Both the position numbers and the translations under genes were made by a program. This document shows, in pieces, positions 15,446 to 22,638 of a DNA stretch of 64,000 nt. This stretch comes from an uncultured Acidobacteriaceae bacterium (GTDB taxonomy: Bacteria; Acidobacteriota; Terriglobia; Terriglobales; Acidobacteriaceae), in contig CAVTVC010000009.1 in assembly GCA_963738085.1 (NCBI GenBank), forward strand, positions 62,454-126,453, read 5' to 3'. The notes below the pieces were generated by a model that was given only the letters and a program-made list of their open reading frames with translations, was not told the origin of the DNA and ran no database searches. The stretch's first letter is position 1. The number at the start of each line of letters is the position of its first letter.

Positions 15446-16444
15446 ATGGCGAACTTGGAATGCAGGATTTTTTATCACGATAAGTGCTTTGATGGGGCCT
15501 GCTCGGCTTCATTGTTTATGCGGTTTCATCGGGAGTGCGTGAAGACTGCGGATAAGTTTTCGTTTCATGGGTTGGTGCATCGGGCAGGGGCGCTGTTCGA
15601 TCACGGGGCATTCGTTGCTGGGGAGAATGCGATCGTTGATTTCAAGTATTCGGCTTCGCCGAAGGTGACGTGGTGGTTCGATCATCACCAGAGTGCGTTT
15701 TTGAATGCGGAGGACCAGAAGAATTTTGAGGCGGGGCAGGCGGACGGTTCGCAACGGATGCGGAAGTTCTTCAATCCTGACTATGTCTCGTGTACGAGTT
15801 TGATTGCGGATATTGCGCAGGTGAATTTTGGGTTTGATACGGCTCCTGTGCTGGAGTTGATCAAGTGGGCGGATATTGTGGATGGGGCTCGGTACGAGAG
15901 CGCGAAGGCCGCCGTGGAGATGGCTGCGCCGGCGATGAAGTTGACGATGGTGATTGAGAGCGCAGCTGATCATTCTTTGGTGCCGCGGCTGATTCCACTA
16001 CTGACCGAGATGAGCTTGCAGCATGTGCTGGATCAGAATTTTGTGCAGGTGTTGCTGGGGCCTTTGATGGAGCGGCACTGGGCTGCGCTGGAGCTAATTC
16101 GGCAGCGGGCTACAGTGGAGCGCGGCGTGATTACGTTCGATATTACGGATCAGCCTACGGAGGGGTACAACAAATTTATTCCGTATTATCTGCATCCCGA
16201 CGCTACTTATAACGTGGGGTTGAGTAAGTCGAGCTTTCGGACGAAGGTGTCGGTTGGGACGAATCCGTGGACGAAGAAGGCTCCGTCGGAATTGGTGAAT
16301 CTGGCGGAGATTTGTGAGCGGTATGGCGGTGGAGGCCACGCTCGCGTGGGGGCGATCAGTTTTCCGCCGGATCGGGAGGATGAGGCTCGCAAGGCGGTGG
16401 GGGAGATCGTGGGGGAGTTGCGCGCGACGGATGGCACGGATTAA
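15446..16444 (+). CDS. DHH/DHHA1 family phosphoesterase
   Basis: YHDKCFDG, WFDHH and C-terminal GGGGH motifs. Confidence 0.8.
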   Translation: MANLECRIFYHDKCFDGACSASLFMRFHRECVKTADKFSFHGLVHRAGALFDHGAFVAGENAIVDFKYSASPKVTWWFDHHQSAFLNAEDQKNFEAGQADGSQRMRKFFNPDYVSCTSLIADIAQVNFGFDTAPVLELIKWADIVDGARYESAKAAVEMAAPAMKLTMVIESAADHSLVPRLIPLLTEMSLQHVLDQNFVQVLLGPLMERHWAALELIRQRATVERGVITFDITDQPTEGYNKFIPYYLHPDATYNVGLSKSSFRTKVSVGTNPWTKKAPSELVNLAEICERYGGGGHARVGAISFPPDREDEARKAVGEIVGELRATDGTD

Positions 16445-17984: not shown

Positions 17985-19160
17985 TTACTGTCCCACGCCT
18001 GCGGACTGCCTGGCAATCACTTCGCGCGCACGTTCACGCGCGGTAAGATCTGCTTCGAGCACTTCGGCGATAGACGCCGGCGGTTGACCGGATGTTAGCT
18101 GCAGCACTGTTTCTATTGTACGTGGAATGCCAAGAAATGGTATGTCTCCGGCGAGGAAGGCAGCAACGGCGATCTCGTCGGCGGCGTTGAGGGCGATGCA
18201 GGTTTTCCCTCCCGCTTCTGCCGCCTCGTAGGCGAGGCGGAGGCAGGGGAAGCGAGTGAGATCGGGTGTGGAGAAGTCGAGTTGGCTGAGGGTTTTGAGG
18301 TCGAAGGTCAGGTCGGACGTTACGCGCTCAGGGTAGGCGAGGGCGTAGAGGATGGGGAGGCGCATGTCGGTGACGGAGATCTGCGCGAGGATGCTGCCGT
18401 CGACGAATTCGACGAGGGAGTGGACGGTGGACTGAGGGTGGATGGTGACCTGGACTTGTGCCGGAGGAAGGCCGAAGAGACGGCAGGCTTCGATAACCTC
18501 GAAGCCTTTGTTCATCATGGTGGCGGAGTCGATGGTGATGCGCTGGCCCATGACCCAGGTAGGGTGCTTGAGAGCCTGCTTCGGAGTGATGCGGTCGAAG
18601 TCGGCCAAGGGCGTGTTGCGGAAGGGGCCGCCTGACGCGGTGAGCCAGATTTGTTTTACTTCGGCGGCGGTTCCACCGCGCATGCACTGGTGGACGGCGT
18701 TGTGTTCAGAGTCGATGGGGAGGAGAGCGACGTTGTGTTTTTTAGCAGCTGCGATGATGAGTTCGCCGGCGGCAACGAGGCATTCCTTGTTGGCGAGGCC
18801 GATGGTTTTTCCGGCGCAGACTGCGGCGTAAGTGGCTTCGAGACCGGCCACTCCAACGATGGCGGAGACGACGAAGTTGACTTCAGGCAGGGTCGCGACG
18901 TGGATAGCGCCTGCGGTACCGTGGAGGACTTCAATGGTGATGCCTTCGGCCTTGAGACGGGTTTTGAGGGTTTCTGCAAGTTTTTCTGTGGCGAGGGAGA
19001 TGACTTTAGGGCGCCAGCGAAGGCATTGCGTGTAAGCGGCGTCAATGTTGCTGCCTGCCGCCAGGGCGACGACCTGGTAGCGATCGGGGAAGGATTCGCA
19101 GATGGAAAGGGTGCTGTTGCCGATGGAGCCGGTCGAGCCGAGGATTGCTAATTTCTTCAC
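17985..19160 (-). CDS. dxr: 1-deoxy-D-xylulose-5-phosphate reductoisomerase
   Basis: LGSTGSIG, LANKE, LPIDSEHNA, TASGGPFR, HPTWVMGQRITIDSATMMNKGFE. Confidence 0.97.
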   Translation of the reverse strand: MKKLAILGSTGSIGNSTLSICESFPDRYQVVALAAGSNIDAAYTQCLRWRPKVISLATEKLAETLKTRLKAEGITIEVLHGTAGAIHVATLPEVNFVVSAIVGVAGLEATYAAVCAGKTIGLANKECLVAAGELIIAAAKKHNVALLPIDSEHNAVHQCMRGGTAAEVKQIWLTASGGPFRNTPLADFDRITPKQALKHPTWVMGQRITIDSATMMNKGFEVIEACRLFGLPPAQVQVTIHPQSTVHSLVEFVDGSILAQISVTDMRLPILYALAYPERVTSDLTFDLKTLSQLDFSTPDLTRFPCLRLAYEAAEAGGKTCIALNAADEIAVAAFLAGDIPFLGIPRTIETVLQLTSGQPPASIAEVLEADLTARERAREVIARQSAGVGQ

Positions 19161-19241: not shown

Positions 19242-19269
19242 CCGGCCCTCGTTTGTGTTCGAGGGCCGG
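19242..19269. terminator. GC-rich hairpin (CCGGCCCTCG-N8-CGAGGGCCGG)
   Basis: Perfect 10-bp stem just downstream of the 19278 stop. No clear U-tract on the minus strand. Confidence 0.5.
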
Positions 19270-19277
19270 TGCGGTCA

Positions 19278-19940
19278 TTATGGTGCGTTGACGACGACGT
19301 ATGTGGTGTTGCTGCCTGACATTTGAGGCTGGTACCAGGTGCCGTTGCAGTTCTGGTAGGCCAGTCCATTGACGATTTGCGTTGCGCAGCCAGCGGGCGG
19401 CTGGTTGACGATCGAACCGATGACAGCAGCGGTTACCATCGCCGTGGCTGTGACCGCAGCTGCAGCTGCAACGGGATGGTAGCAGCAGCCGCCGCCGCCA
19501 TAGTAGCCGCCGCCACCGTAGCCGCCATTGACGTTCACGTTCACGTCGCGGTTAACGTTGACGTTGTTGTTGACGTTGGTGTTTCTATTCACGTTCTGAT
19601 TTACGTTGGTGTTTCTATTTGCGTTCTGATTTACGTTGGCGTTGCCGTTGCGATTGGCACCCTGATTGGCGTTGGCGCCGCGATTGGCGCCTTGGTTGCC
19701 GTTGGCGCGATTGGCACCCTGGTTGCCACCGCGATTGCCGCCCTGGGCAGGAGTCGAGTTGACGCTGGTTCGAGCGCTGCTGCGGGTACCGCCGCCTGCT
19801 GCGCCGCCGCCGCCACCGCGAGATGCGGCCCCACCACCACCACCACCGCCGCGGCCGCCGCCGCGTTGGGCGAAGAGGGTCATTCCGGATATCAGGATTG
19901 CGATGGCGAATAGGGCGAAGATCTGAGTTGATCGCTTCAT
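19278..19940 (-). CDS. Secreted Gly/Asn-rich low-complexity repeat protein with Cys-containing C-terminal domain
   Basis: Signal peptide MKRSTQIFALFAIAILISGMTLFAQ, NQGANR and NVNxN repeats, then CCYHP, a hydrophobic helix and C..YQNC..WYQP. Confidence 0.8.
   Translation of the reverse strand: MKRSTQIFALFAIAILISGMTLFAQRGGGRGGGGGGGAASRGGGGGAAGGGTRSSARTSVNSTPAQGGNRGGNQGANRANGNQGANRGANANQGANRNGNANVNQNANRNTNVNQNVNRNTNVNNNVNVNRDVNVNVNGGYGGGGYYGGGGCCYHPVAAAAAVTATAMVTAAVIGSIVNQPPAGCATQIVNGLAYQNCNGTWYQPQMSGSNTTYVVVNAP
19581..19745. repeat. Intragenic ~27-30 bp tandem repeats encoding the NVNQNxNRNT and NQGANR units
   Basis: Two near-identical 30-mers at 19581-19640, followed by several CGATTGGCRCC-containing units. 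Confidence 0.85.
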
Positions 19941-19950
19941 AGCAGTCACC

Positions 19951-20799
19951 TTATTTCCCTTTCTTGGTGTCGTCGGCGGTTTGCCCTTCGAAGAGAATGC
20001 GCTTGGCATCGGGCGGCGGATCGAAGACGAAGGCAGCGTCGTTGAAGGAGGGCGCGAGGTTCCACGTTAGAGTCATGGTGTGCTGCGGCCTGGCCTCGTC
20101 GGTGAGGGTGGTAATGACCAGCCTGCGCGGCAGAGGATAGTCTCCGAGCTGAATCCAAATCTGCCAGTCGACGCCTTCCTGGTGGAAGACATACTGCTCG
20201 CAGGTGACGCCCTCGACGGTTGTGGGGCCGGCGTCAATGGCGGTCTGGATCTTATTGATATCGTCCTCGTTTGTTCCCCATTTGAAGAGGTCGATGAGTG
20301 GCAGTTCGATGTCGAATTTTTCCTGGACTTGCTTGAATAATTCGCCGATAGTTGGCGGTGCAGCAACGGTTGCGTAGTAGTTATTCAGCTTTCCCCAAGC
20401 GGAGAAGGTTTTTCCGTCGTAGAGATAAAGTCTGTGCTTGTCATCGCTGGTGACCTCGGCGCGCATGCGGTTGGGCTTAACGGCGAGCATGTCGATTTTG
20501 GTCCTGGATTGAACGATCAGCCCGTCCTCGAGGACATCATCGTGTGTGACGTCTCCCTGCACCTGGAAGACCTTGAGGGTGCGAAGATAGGCGCCCATTT
20601 TTTTTACTGTGTCGATGGCGGCGGGATCGATGTTGGAATCTTCTTTCGCTTCTTTTGCTTCCAGCGTCGCTTGAGGCGGTTGACCGATCTTCGCAAGAAT
20701 GCTCGATCCAAAGGACGCCCACAGAATGATTCCCGCGATGAGAACGGATATTGCTGCTAAGGTCAGTTGTTTTGGAGAGAAGCGCTTTAAGAAGTTCAT
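19951..20799 (-). CDS. DUF2092 domain-containing periplasmic protein (LolA-like fold)
   Basis: KPNRMRAEV, YDGKTF, ELPLIDL, VDWQIWI and PRRLVIT pattern; N-terminal hydrophobic anchor; 10 bp upstream of the repeat protein. Confidence 0.8.
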   Translation of the reverse strand: MNFLKRFSPKQLTLAAISVLIAGIILWASFGSSILAKIGQPPQATLEAKEAKEDSNIDPAAIDTVKKMGAYLRTLKVFQVQGDVTHDDVLEDGLIVQSRTKIDMLAVKPNRMRAEVTSDDKHRLYLYDGKTFSAWGKLNNYYATVAAPPTIGELFKQVQEKFDIELPLIDLFKWGTNEDDINKIQTAIDAGPTTVEGVTCEQYVFHQEGVDWQIWIQLGDYPLPRRLVITTLTDEARPQHTMTLTWNLAPSFNDAAFVFDPPPDAKRILFEGQTADDTKKGK

Positions 20800-21080
20800 A
20801 TCGTTCTACCTCGCGAATCATTTCCGGTGAAGTCCCTGACAGGTCGGTTCCACGGCCAATCTGCGGAGATGGGCCTGCCTGGTCAGATAACGGGCCAATC
20901 TGATGCTGGGGAGCGCTCCCGAGTGAGCAATAAGGCCTGGTCCTACATACGGGGTAAGTAGCGGTGCTTCAGAATGACCCAAAACATTCGCAGCAGACCC
21001 GGCTGCGTTGCGTATAAAAGTAGCCCTTAGGCGTCTTTCGCGTAACTGGGAAAAACCCTAGTTTTTTACGATCTGTGAGG

Positions 21081-21944
21081 TCAGAAGCGGCCGAGGCCGA
21101 AGTAGTCCTTTAGGAGGAGGGCGAACCAGAGGACTGGCGAGGCAAGGAGGAGGGCGTCGATGCGGTCGAGGATGCCTCCGTGGCCGGGGAGCATGGTGCC
21201 GGAGTCTTTGACTCCAGCGCCTCGCTTGATGGCGGATTCGAGGAGATCTCCCATCTGGGCTGCGATGTTGAGGATGGCAGCGAGAAGGAGGGATTGCCAG
21301 AGCGGCTCGGAGATGTGGAGGCTGGTGTTACCGCGGGCGGTGAGGGCGTTGGAGATGGCGATGACGAATCCTGCGGCGAGCATGCTGCCAATGATGGAGG
21401 CAATGGAGCCGACCCAGGTCTTGCCTGGACTTAGACGTGGCGCGAGTTTGCTCTTGCCGAAGGCGCGGCCGAAGTAGAGGGCGGCGATGTCTCCGGCCCA
21501 GACGCAGACCATCAGAAAGAGGAGGAGCGCGGGGCCATCCTCTTGCTTCCAAAGCATGGGAACCAGTGTGAGCGGGTAGGCGATGTAGATGAGGCCGAAG
21601 AGTCCCTGTGCGGTGTCGGGGAGGACCTGGTTGAGCGGGGAGCGGAAGCCGTTCCAGGCGAAGAGAGCAAGAGTGAGGGCGCTGAGAACGGGGAGTTGGG
21701 CTTCGACAGGGAAGTTTGGCAGGGTGACGACGAACGCGAGAGCGGTGCCGATGGCCATCCACCAGATGGGGATGCGGAGTTTGGCGTTGTGGGCCTCGGC
21801 ACCTTTTGCGGCGAGCTGGAGAAATTCATAGGCAGCCAGCTCGGCGACGATTGCTGAGAAGAGAGTAATCATCCAGAGCTTGCCGAAAAAGATAAGAGCA
21901 AAGACGGCGAGGATGAGGACCGAGGCAGTGAGGATTCGTTTCAT
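21081..21944 (-). CDS. cdsA: Phosphatidate cytidylyltransferase
   Basis: WAGDIAALYFG, SPGKTWVG and GDLLESAIKRGAGVKDSGTMLPGHGGILDRID signature. Confidence 0.95.
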   Translation of the reverse strand: MKRILTASVLILAVFALIFFGKLWMITLFSAIVAELAAYEFLQLAAKGAEAHNAKLRIPIWWMAIGTALAFVVTLPNFPVEAQLPVLSALTLALFAWNGFRSPLNQVLPDTAQGLFGLIYIAYPLTLVPMLWKQEDGPALLLFLMVCVWAGDIAALYFGRAFGKSKLAPRLSPGKTWVGSIASIIGSMLAAGFVIAISNALTARGNTSLHISEPLWQSLLLAAILNIAAQMGDLLESAIKRGAGVKDSGTMLPGHGGILDRIDALLLASPVLWFALLLKDYFGLGRF

Positions 21945-21992
21945 TGGGCTTAGACAGGATAAATGGGATGCGGTTAGGCGAAGGAATATTAC

Positions 21993-22020
21993 TTGACGTA
22001 TCAAGATATATCTTGATACT
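21993..22020 (+). promoter_or_regulatory. Sigma70-like promoter (TTGACG...GATACT) overlapped by the perfect 22-bp palindrome GTATCAAGATATATCTTGATAC
   Basis: The palindrome at 21998-22019 is read directly and fills the -35/-10 spacer 10 bp upstream of the PadR start. Confidence 0.75.
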
Positions 22021-22029
22021 GTTTTAAAC

Positions 22030-22638
22030 ATGAGAAACCTACATGAACACTTACACGAACACTTTCGAGGTTTCCGCGGCAGAGAAGGAAGCCGTGGAGA
22101 GAGACAAAGGGAAGATAGACATTGCGGCGGTCGAGGAGAATTTGGCGGACGACATGGATTTGGATCCCGTGGTGGCCGAGGAGGGCCGATGCGGTTCTTT
22201 GGGGCCGGCGATCTGCGCTACGTTATTTTGCAGATGATCGCAGAGAAGCCGAGCCACGGTTACGAGATCATCAAGTCGATCCAGGAGCGGCTGGGAGGCA
22301 CGTATGCACCGAGTCCGGGTGTGGTTTATCCGATGTTGACCATGCTGGAGGAGATGGGACATGCAACGGTGGTGACCGAGGGCGCGCGCAAACTTTATAC
22401 GATCACCGAGGAGGGATTGAAGGCGCTGGCGGAGAACAAGGCGCTGGTGGATGCGCTGTTCGCCAGGATGGACCACGTGCGGGGGGAGCAGGGTGGGGAG
22501 CGAGCACAACAGATTGAGAGGGCGGTCGCGAACTTTCGTATGGCGCTGCGGATGAAGCAGGGATCGTTGACGACAGAACAGATCCACGCGATCACCGACA
22601 TCATCGATGCGGCGGCGAAGCAGATCGAACGTGCGTGA
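22030..22638 (+). CDS. PadR family transcriptional regulator (YqjI-like, His/Gly/Arg-rich N-terminus)
   Basis: GDLRYVIL, PSHGYEIIK, SPGVVYPML and KLYTITEEG winged-helix motifs. Confidence 0.9.
   Translation: MRNLHEHLHEHFRGFRGREGSRGERQREDRHCGGRGEFGGRHGFGSRGGRGGPMRFFGAGDLRYVILQMIAEKPSHGYEIIKSIQERLGGTYAPSPGVVYPMLTMLEEMGHATVVTEGARKLYTITEEGLKALAENKALVDALFARMDHVRGEQGGERAQQIERAVANFRMALRMKQGSLTTEQIHAITDIIDAAAKQIERA

Follow-up and report, generated by a model that had tools for sequence, protein, structure and literature searches.

DUF2092 and a DUF6515-related exported partner: a two-gene cell-envelope module in an uncultured Acidobacteriaceae bacterium and across bacterial phyla

A stretch of 64,000 nucleotides from an uncultured Acidobacteriaceae bacterium (GenBank assembly GCA_963738085.1, contig CAVTVC010000009.1, positions 62,454 to 126,453; referred to here, at its full length, as the window) carries on its minus strand a gene for a 282 amino acid protein that matches the Pfam family PF09865 (DUF2092; 19951-20799) and, immediately downstream, a gene for a 220 amino acid partner protein (19278-19940, with the stop codon at 19278-19280). 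An earlier note on this DNA, made from the sequence alone, had suggested that the DUF2092 protein chaperones or exports a polymerising, amyloid-like surface protein. In the analysis described here, the two genes are established as a self-contained cell-envelope module, and an envelope chaperone-and-client pair fits the evidence better than an exported amyloid fibre. As a rule, a DUF2092 gene and a gene for a DUF6515-type partner make up one operon pair in the Acidobacteriota, Proteobacteria, Gemmatimonadota and Cyanobacteria.

A genome scan with an alignment of the partner yielded 474 relatives, and the pairing counts given here rest on the best 80 loci. These come from the Acidobacteriota (Acidobacteriaceae, Vicinamibacterales, Thermoanaerobaculia and Bryobacteraceae), the Gammaproteobacteria (Lysobacter, Luteimonas, Stenotrophomonas, Pseudoxanthomonas, Halioglobus, Steroidobacteraceae and Methylococcaceae), the Beta-, Alpha- and Deltaproteobacteria and the Gemmatimonadota. 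A DUF2092 homologue (33-93% identity in tblastn searches with the window DUF2092 protein) lies directly upstream of the partner gene, on the same strand, in 78 of the 80. Between the DUF2092 stop codon and the partner start the median distance is 1 nt; of the 68 cases where it is measurable, 58 lie within +/-30 nt, including 11 four-base (-4 nt) overlaps. The genes thus appear translationally coupled, and such tight coupling suggests that the two proteins are produced 1:1. The two exceptions (L027 and L041) are orphan partner copies that have no signal peptide and look truncated or read-through; no DUF2092 remnant was found in either, even at relaxed thresholds. In around 25 loci, those nearest to the window sequence, the pair is likewise inserted between cdsA and dxr. 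Beyond the pair itself, neither conserved flanking genes nor a third gene was seen between phyla, which argues that the pair is the functional unit.

The reverse test set out from DUF2092. Among 141 plasmid or chromid records with a DUF2092 relative, each below 60% identity, 15 loci (25-41% identity) were inspected, and a partner-type gene was present downstream in 14 of these, in full form in 11 and as a mini-partner in three. Full partners are found in Cupriavidus metallidurans CH34, on pSymA of Sinorhizobium meliloti, and in R. tumorigenes, Paracoccus yeei, Thiodictyon, Gloeothece, Acaryochloris, Leptolyngbya, Paraburkholderia terrae, Azospirillum brasilense and Agrobacterium pusense (annotated there as a 58 amino acid fragment). 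The cyanobacterial partners (Gloeothece, Acaryochloris and Leptolyngbya) are named DUF6515 by NCBI. Leptolyngbya has two tandem copies of around 105 amino acids each, whilst the 111 amino acid pSymA partner comprises a VGRPxTPxSxAGxxRRTTRR motif and the C-terminal beta domain; short partner variants lie at L092:3847-4554, L093:3771-3983, L094:3690-3914, L095:3738-3950 and L083:4708-5043. The proposal that the two genes form a functional unit has therefore held up: they do co-occur elsewhere, they appear coupled, and distant DUF2092 genes have partners of their own.

A search with the last 82 residues of the partner identified 210 homologous proteins (E<=0.01), mostly of around 140 amino acids, and a profile search of 1.84 billion cluster representatives gave 1631 members at E<=1e-3, of which 658 also pass E<=1e-10. 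The 150 best listed representatives are all 65-281 amino acids long, and no natural fusion of DUF2092 to the partner is present among them (P0284 and P0377 resemble assembly or frameshift chimeras). These numbers bear on the possibility that the second gene is a spurious open reading frame (ORF) in low-complexity DNA, or that the two genes are neighbours without any functional link. Low-complexity DNA does give long ORFs on both strands, and a 196 amino acid antisense ORF (19323-19913, plus strand) spans the low-complexity part of the partner gene. It is the minus-strand frame that is favoured, however, because it has the 210 homologues, and the antisense ORF is probably an artefact of repetitive, GC-rich, low-complexity sequence. 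With so many cluster representatives, synteny in nearly all of the 80 loci and a confidently folded C-terminal domain (see below), the spurious-ORF explanation is effectively refuted.

The two ORFs sit between cdsA (21081-22031) and dxr (17985-19160). The window neighbours recognised by Pfam are uppS, cdsA, dxr, rseP and a divergent PadR-family gene, and in the Acidobacteriaceae the pair is embedded in an envelope-biogenesis cluster in the order uppS, cdsA, pair, dxr, rseP. The partner ATG at 19940 lies 10 nt past the DUF2092 stop codon, with a Shine-Dalgarno sequence (AGGTGA) 5 nt upstream. An alternative in-frame start, a GTG at 19949, would reduce the gap to 1 nt and is an ATG at the same position in close relatives; the mature protein is identical whichever of the two is used. 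The coordinates, gene content, 10-nt gap and every motif named in the earlier note are all present in the sequence. Nine nt past the partner stop codon, between the pair and dxr, lies a perfect hairpin of 10-bp stem and 8-nt loop (19242-19269, minus strand) that is terminator-like but has no U-tract; its minimum free energy is -24.8 kcal/mol, compared with a mean of -11.2 for shuffled sequences (z = -5.9). A consensus scan also picked out, as a pattern match only, a terminator-like hairpin with a T-rich tail (20989-21007, minus strand) downstream of cdsA and upstream of the DUF2092 gene. Because these two sites flank it, the pair is suggested to be a transcription unit of its own. No sigma-70 promoter was found in a scan of the locus, and an Rfam scan gave only matches far below gathering score. 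The sequencing runs that contain the locus are all soil-metagenome DNA runs, with no RNA runs among them.

The first protein matches DUF2092 at 209.5 bits (cutoff 21.2; E=4.8e-62), from position 1 to position 211 of the 212 in the model, and the domain covers residues 61-270 (19990-20619, minus strand). It is preceded by a hydrophobic segment at residues 12-35 (20695-20766, minus strand), either a signal peptide or a signal anchor, that reaches a mean Kyte-Doolittle hydropathy of 2.3 over a 19-residue window and has no lipobox. Most DUF2092 relatives have ordinary Sec signal peptides and a few have lipoboxes, such as LGAC in CH34, features that point to a periplasmic location for the family; the longer hydrophobic segment of the Acidobacteriaceae versions may stay in place as an anchor. 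The Pfam clan placement of DUF2092 points to a relationship with LolA. A profile built from 30 diverse DUF2092 sequences matches LolA (8orn_A, E=0.0031) via two colinear segments, and the same relationship is given in the literature (PMC4520260), so that DUF2092 can, on sequence grounds, be regarded as LolA-related, as the earlier note had it. An NCBIfam scan gave nothing meaningful for either the DUF2092 protein or its partner.

The partner begins with a Sec-type signal peptide (residues 1-24; 19869-19940, minus strand), read from the sequence as MKRSTQIFALFAIAILISGMTLFA followed by QR, with probable cleavage between LFA and QR. Its mean Kyte-Doolittle hydropathy is 2.18 and the xSA/QR-type cleavage site is conserved among relatives; a lipobox cysteine is present neither here nor in any of the 80 relatives. 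There follows a lineage-specific expansion (19650-19865, minus strand) made up of a Gly-rich RGG tract (residues 26-51), a linker and GN/NQGANR repeats (residues 67-97), with tandem DNA repeats of 30-bp and 18-bp period. This expansion is present only in the nearest relatives of the window protein and missing from typical family members of around 140 amino acids, and it is because of the Gly-rich and NQGANR expansions that the window partner is longer than most. Next come a strict (N/D-x)n tract, in which x is V, T, R, Q or A (residues 96-139; 19524-19655, minus strand), a Gly/Tyr spacer, GGYGGGGYYGGGG (residues 139-151), and the motif CCYHP (residues 152-156; spacer and motif together 19473-19526, minus strand). 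The remainder consists of a small-residue hydrophobic segment rich in Ala, Thr and Val, VAAAAAVTATAMVTAAVIGSIV (residues 157-178; 19407-19472, minus strand), and a C-terminal beta domain of around 42 residues (residues 179-220; 19281-19406, minus strand) with two conserved cysteines, C185 and C198, and the motif PPxC..V.VNG..Y..C...WYQPQ..G....YVVV..P. Export of the second protein, and the order of its domains, are thus as first described.

The regularity of the tract goes far beyond chance. Asn or Asp occupies every second residue over 44 amino acids, whereas in shuffled versions of the mature protein (20,000 of them) the longest run had a mean length of 5.9 residues and a maximum of 16; composition alone does not account for the alternation. 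The DNA of the tract contains tandem repeats with a 30-bp period (92% and 78% matches), a sign of recent expansion. Arginines are regularly spaced within it, giving a net charge of +4 over the 44 residues. Alternating (N-x)n tracts of 20-56 residues are present in most of the 80 loci and are conserved in relatives from the Acidobacteriota and the Beta-, Gamma- and Deltaproteobacteria as well as in Acaryochloris and Thiodictyon, and judging by this distribution the element is old and widespread. Two possible roles for the tract can be set aside: it provides no N-glycosylation sequons, as position +2 is always N, and it does not form transmembrane beta strands, as the x positions include regularly spaced R, Q and T.

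AlphaFold2 (AF2) modelling of the partner from an 88-sequence alignment gave a confident prediction for residues ~172-220 only, as four strands with a predicted local distance difference test score (pLDDT) of ~95. A helix is predicted with low confidence at residues 156-166, and everything from the signal peptide to CCYHP has a pLDDT of 42-53 and no secondary structure (42-45 for the expansion; ~50 for the (N/D-x)n tract; 45-51, with no strands, for the N-rich region at residues 60-150). As a prediction for the monomer, this says nothing about intermolecular cross-beta structure. A Foldseek search of the PDB with the partner model gave no match at E<=0.001 (best E=0.79) and a sequence-profile search of PDB sequences gave chance matches only: the C-terminal beta domain has no solved PDB relative by fold or by sequence.

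Comparison across the family separates what is constant from what varies. The common order in the homologues is signal peptide, NVNVNR-type tract, GGYYGGG, CCYHP, hydrophobic segment and C-terminal domain. Invariant alignment columns fall in the CC motif, in the hydrophobic segment (T, A, A, G, S, V) and in the C-terminal domain (P, C, N, G, Y, C, Y, Q, P, Q, G, Y, V, P). The hydrophobic segment, with its invariant and near-invariant positions, is conserved in sequence itself, beyond mere hydrophobicity; weak matches of this segment to DUF2574 were judged compositional. In the close family G-C-C is invariant and the Y, H and P of CCYHP are kept in at least 90% of sequences, whilst in the Xanthomonadales and some other Proteobacteria the CC is replaced by a W/D/H-rich stretch with HP retained. 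The CC motif was also considered as a formylglycine (CxPxR) site for the formylglycine-generating enzymes (FGE) encoded near some pairs, and rejected on two counts: its residues are not spaced as in such a site, and lineages with an adjacent FGE gene lack it. In the wide family the constant parts are an aromatic/Gly (or aromatic/Gly/Asp) stretch, HP (or RP), the small-residue hydrophobic segment, LPP and the beta domain. Gloeothece and Thiodictyon do without the cysteine pair of the beta domain; cysteines that some lineages can dispense with are typical of a disulfide that stabilises an extracytoplasmic domain, and not of a catalytic or metal site. The constant core of the partner is thus an aromatic/Gly stretch, HP, an Ala/Thr/Val/Gly hydrophobic segment and a four-stranded beta domain stabilised by a putative disulfide.

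The low-complexity region, in contrast to this core, varies in composition. It is of N/V type in the Acidobacteriota, the Beta-, Gamma- and Deltaproteobacteria, Acaryochloris and, in part, Thiodictyon; rich in His/Pro in Rhizobium and Paracoccus; rich in Gly/Phe in Thiodictyon and Gloeothece, the latter also with Q/N repeats; and, for Azospirillum and Paraburkholderia, rich in Q/T/E/R. The (N-x)n tract is therefore not the element that always travels with DUF2092, and the idea that an N/V tract is a constant feature of the family finds no support. In terms of known families, the PF20125 (DUF6515) model scores 20.3 bits on the window partner, below its cutoff of 24.9, and aligns only from position 107 to position 177 of its 179. 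Precomputed PF20125 matches exist for many close homologues, and diverse relatives score 15.7-25.4 bits. The DUF6515 motif (LPP...V.G..Y......Y.P..G....YVVV..P) is found in the window partner, which also aligns with the NCBI-named DUF6515 proteins of Gloeothece and Acaryochloris. The window partner would thus be best described as belonging to a peripheral, DUF6515-related subfamily that shares the C-terminal domain.

How might the module work? The reading we favour, tentatively and with slightly less than even confidence, is that DUF2092 serves in the periplasm as a LolA-like binder or chaperone dedicated to a non-lipidated envelope protein. The partner would be exported by Sec without being lipidated, and its hydrophobic segment would then be bound and shielded in the periplasm by DUF2092, in parallel with the way in which LolA covers the acyl chains of lipoproteins; the periplasmic location, the direct binding and the choice of segment are all part of what is proposed here. 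Thereafter DUF2092 would either chaperone or carry this one client towards the outer membrane or remain with it as a stable heterodimer. The N-terminal low-complexity region, in this protein a Gly-rich tract plus the strict (N-x)n tract, may be an exposed, fast-evolving and beta-prone 'polar zipper' that mediates self-association or binding to envelope material, and so could be the functional or adhesive part. Several considerations lead us to prefer binding of the hydrophobic segment (residues 157-178), a candidate for binding DUF2092, for interacting with the membrane or for oligomerisation. Shielding hydrophobic moieties is what the LolA fold is built for, the client is exported without lipidation, and the tight coupling of the genes suggests 1:1 production. 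Sequence conservation of the segment, and its presence beside DUF2092 in 11 of the 15 distant loci that were inspected, point the same way. A binding role is preferred also because proteins of LolA fold are known to work via protein contacts, as in the case of GerS, which activates an amidase in this way (bioRxiv 10.1101/2025.01.13.632879), and because accessory LolA-like proteins occur in export clusters (PMC13078400). The signal peptide, the lack of a lipobox, the absence of K/R after the segment and the cysteine pair would together be in keeping with a beta domain outside the cytoplasm and a segment that is not membrane-spanning.

A number of observations weigh against this interpretation. 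The mini-partners of the three rhizobial plasmids, at 70-74 amino acids, have no beta domain and keep only a short VGRPLTPVSVAGVARR motif and a C-x6-C end, and the DUF2092 gene of Eleftheria terrae has no partner at all, a YSC84-related gene being present instead. The hydropathy of the segment exceeds the classical Kyte-Doolittle threshold for a transmembrane helix. The AF2 model of DUF2092 contains strands and helices but has a mean pLDDT of 42.5, owing to a shallow alignment of sequences 63-92% identical to the query, and its fold is unreliable. Finally, the recurrence of sulfatase and FGE genes near the pair hints at a role connected with small molecules or sulfate esters that the chaperone model does not explain.

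Three other explanations of the pair deserve consideration. In the one closest to the earlier note, the (N-x)n tract polymerises as a functional amyloid, cross-beta fibre or reversible hydrogel, and DUF2092 is an anti-aggregation chaperone or export factor comparable to CsgC or CsgE. A polar or steric zipper of the kind formed by N/Q-rich amyloids requires a one-sided Asn face, and the one-sided Asn ladder produced by strict alternation, adjoining a G/Y-rich stretch and found at 20-56 residues in several phyla, resembles just such a zipper; the obligate co-occurrence with a probably periplasmic partner and the presence of an Omp85-family gene after or near the pair in five loci are also in its favour. 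The typical tract, however, is just ~30-40 residues long, the regularly spaced arginines would disfavour in-register stacking, and in many DUF2092-paired partners the N/V tract is swapped for one rich in His/Pro, Gly or Q. Monomeric solenoid amyloids are, in general experience, usually predicted confidently by AF2, yet the N-rich region scores poorly and shows no strands, and no curlin or other amyloid family in Pfam matches at E<=1. The curli-like or beta-solenoid character originally suspected has consequently not been borne out, and neither has a surface location: the window, like most of the loci, encodes no outer-membrane secretion component, and the pair is the only unit conserved across phyla. 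We consider polymerisation of this kind unlikely. A more far-reaching scheme, and a less probable one still, is that of a minimal, Lol-independent two-gene system in soil bacteria: a dedicated LolA-fold carrier would escort a non-lipidated client by its conserved hydrophobic segment, and the client's (N-x)n zipper would then assemble, in the periplasm or at the outer membrane, as a layer that is cross-beta or gel-like. Were it true, it would represent a new class of chaperone-controlled functional amyloid or condensate in at least six phyla, possibly tied to envelope stress or to sulfatase-dependent processes.

The hydropathy of the segment (a mean of 1.95 over 19 residues on the Kyte-Doolittle scale), together with the AF2 helix over part of it, is compatible with a different topology, in which the partner is a single-pass inner-membrane protein with a cleaved signal peptide, a periplasmic low-complexity region and a cytoplasmic beta domain, and DUF2092 binds and regulates the periplasmic part. 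There is a precedent in RseB, a LolA-fold protein that binds the periplasmic tail of RseA, and in the Acidobacteriaceae the pair is two genes away from rseP. This neighbourhood is restricted to one family, however, and by our own estimate, made without a prediction tool, the hydrophobicity of the Ala/Thr-rich segment on biological scales is only marginal. The segment has no K/R flank after it, there is no DNA-binding or sigma-binding domain, and the conserved cysteine pair of the beta domain, which some lineages can do without, is typical of a structural disulfide outside the cytoplasm; we therefore doubt that the partner spans the membrane. It is equally doubtful, in our judgement, that DUF2092 binds a small hydrophobic ligand (a lipid, sulfated lipid, or alkyl or aryl sulfate ester), acting with periplasmic sulfatases in uptake, sensing or handling and with the partner as an accessory. 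LolA-fold proteins typically bind lipids, and 24 of 89 loci, spread over many lineages, have a gene for a sulfatase (PF00884), an FGE (PF03781) or both no further than 6 kb from the pair, a raw count without a background density as control. Most loci have neither gene, though, there is none in the 64-kb window, and the strong conservation of segments of the partner peptide would be left unexplained. 

The sulfatase and FGE neighbours come from the Betaproteobacteria, Cyanobacteria, Acidobacteriota, Delta- and Alphaproteobacteria, Gemmatimonadota and Xanthomonadales, and several are adjacent to the pair and on the same strand. The PF00884 sulfatases carry the formylglycine site CxPxR (CSPTR). 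The loci concerned include L025, L039, L049, L050, L052, L059, L067, L068, L072 and L077, and also L036, L071, L010, L020, L029, L062, L085, L087 and L092. Omp85-superfamily genes (378-668 amino acids) lie directly downstream of the pair in L057 (6225-7361) and L062 (6153-7361) and nearby in L010 (6934-8370), L030 (10145-12151) and L064 (9584-11236), all of them Alpha- or Gammaproteobacterial loci, and could provide an outer-membrane component in those lineages. Because no background control is available, both associations should be treated as leads rather than findings. In loci of the Lysobacter group, a secreted protein of ~870 amino acids with no Pfam match is encoded directly after the pair (L042:6398-9004, L055:6332-8953, L064:6147-8951, L066:3470-6238 and L070:6299-8920); its C-terminal part is of low complexity, being W/Y/G-rich and Gly/Asn-rich, which makes it a further uncharacterised envelope protein of this general type.

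Some further features of the window are worth recording. The PadR-family regulator gene (22030-22638, plus strand) is divergent from cdsA, the two start codons overlapping by 2 nt, and its product bears an unusual His/Arg/Gly-rich N-terminal extension of ~55 residues (HLHEHFRGFRGREGSRGERQ...GGRGG). An ORF of 332 amino acids (15446-16444, plus strand) that adjoins rseP has no Pfam match at E<=1e-5. The window as a whole (1-64000) displays a very strong strand asymmetry, with (G-C)/(G+C) at +0.29 on the plus strand and constant throughout. The skew at third codon positions is around +0.3 to +0.7 for plus-strand genes and -0.3 to -0.7 for minus-strand genes, and so tracks the strand, not gene orientation. 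Related Acidobacteriaceae loci have skews of |0.16-0.28|, whilst loci of other phyla have values close to 0. The uppS-cdsA-dxr-rseP genes are on the lagging strand if the leading strand is the G-rich one.

For DUF2092, full-text literature searches turned up a fold assignment and nothing else; for DUF6515 they yielded no functional study. The families themselves are catalogued, but the obligate pairing, the definition of a conserved core and the (N-x)n tract are not described in the literature searched. Through the pairing, two catalogued but uncharacterised DUFs become one testable system, comprising a LolA-like protein and a putative proteinaceous, non-lipidated client, and the pair is carried by genetically tractable species: C. 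metallidurans CH34, S. meliloti and A. brasilense. If the proposed mechanism is true, it would widen the known role of LolA-like carriers and provide a handle on the abundant low-complexity envelope proteins of soil bacteria.

It is instructive to set the chaperone-and-client reading beside systems that are already known. The closest parallel is with LolA and LolB: by sequence profile DUF2092 belongs to the same superfamily, and the shielding of a hydrophobic element proposed here is LolA's own job. The partner, unlike a lipoprotein, has no lipobox and is not acylated, however, carrier and client come as a 1:1 operon pair, and neither LolCDE-like nor LolB-like genes accompany the pair, with no lol genes adjacent. 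GerS-CwlD of C. difficile and RseB-RseA involve a LolA-fold protein that acts, as is proposed for DUF2092, by protein-protein interaction rather than in lipoprotein transport, but here there is neither an amidase nor an anti-sigma factor, and the partner is unrelated in sequence.

With the DUF6515 proteins of Gloeothece, Acaryochloris and Leptolyngbya, the window partner shares the C-terminal beta domain, the small-residue segment before it, a low-complexity N-terminal region and a position directly downstream of DUF2092. It differs in falling below the Pfam cutoff and matching only the last ~70 of the 179 model positions, in having a single beta domain with a cysteine pair where Gloeothece has two cysteine-free copies, and in the addition of the (N-x)n tract and CCYHP. 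The curli (CsgA with CsgC/E/F/G) and Fap systems resemble the pair in that an exported N/Q/G-rich repeat protein is encoded beside a protein, here probably periplasmic, that could restrain it. The locus, by contrast, has no curlin repeat (PF07012) at E<=1, no nucleator (CsgB), no CsgG- or FapF-type channel and no CsgE or CsgF, and the repeat unit is a dipeptide or decapeptide with no predicted solenoid, as against a strand-turn-strand unit of 19-23 residues. Finally, the glycine-zipper outer-membrane lipoproteins (SlyB/Pcp and YfgH) are, like the partner, small envelope proteins in which a small-residue hydrophobic stretch precedes a compact beta domain; glycine-zipper genes neighbour the pair in the Gloeothece and Azospirillum loci, and some loci have a stress-gene context. 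The partner has no match to PF13488, PF13441 or PF13436 at E<=1 and no lipid anchor, and where those proteins have a helical hairpin it has a single segment of ~22 residues and, at its side, a dedicated LolA-like companion.

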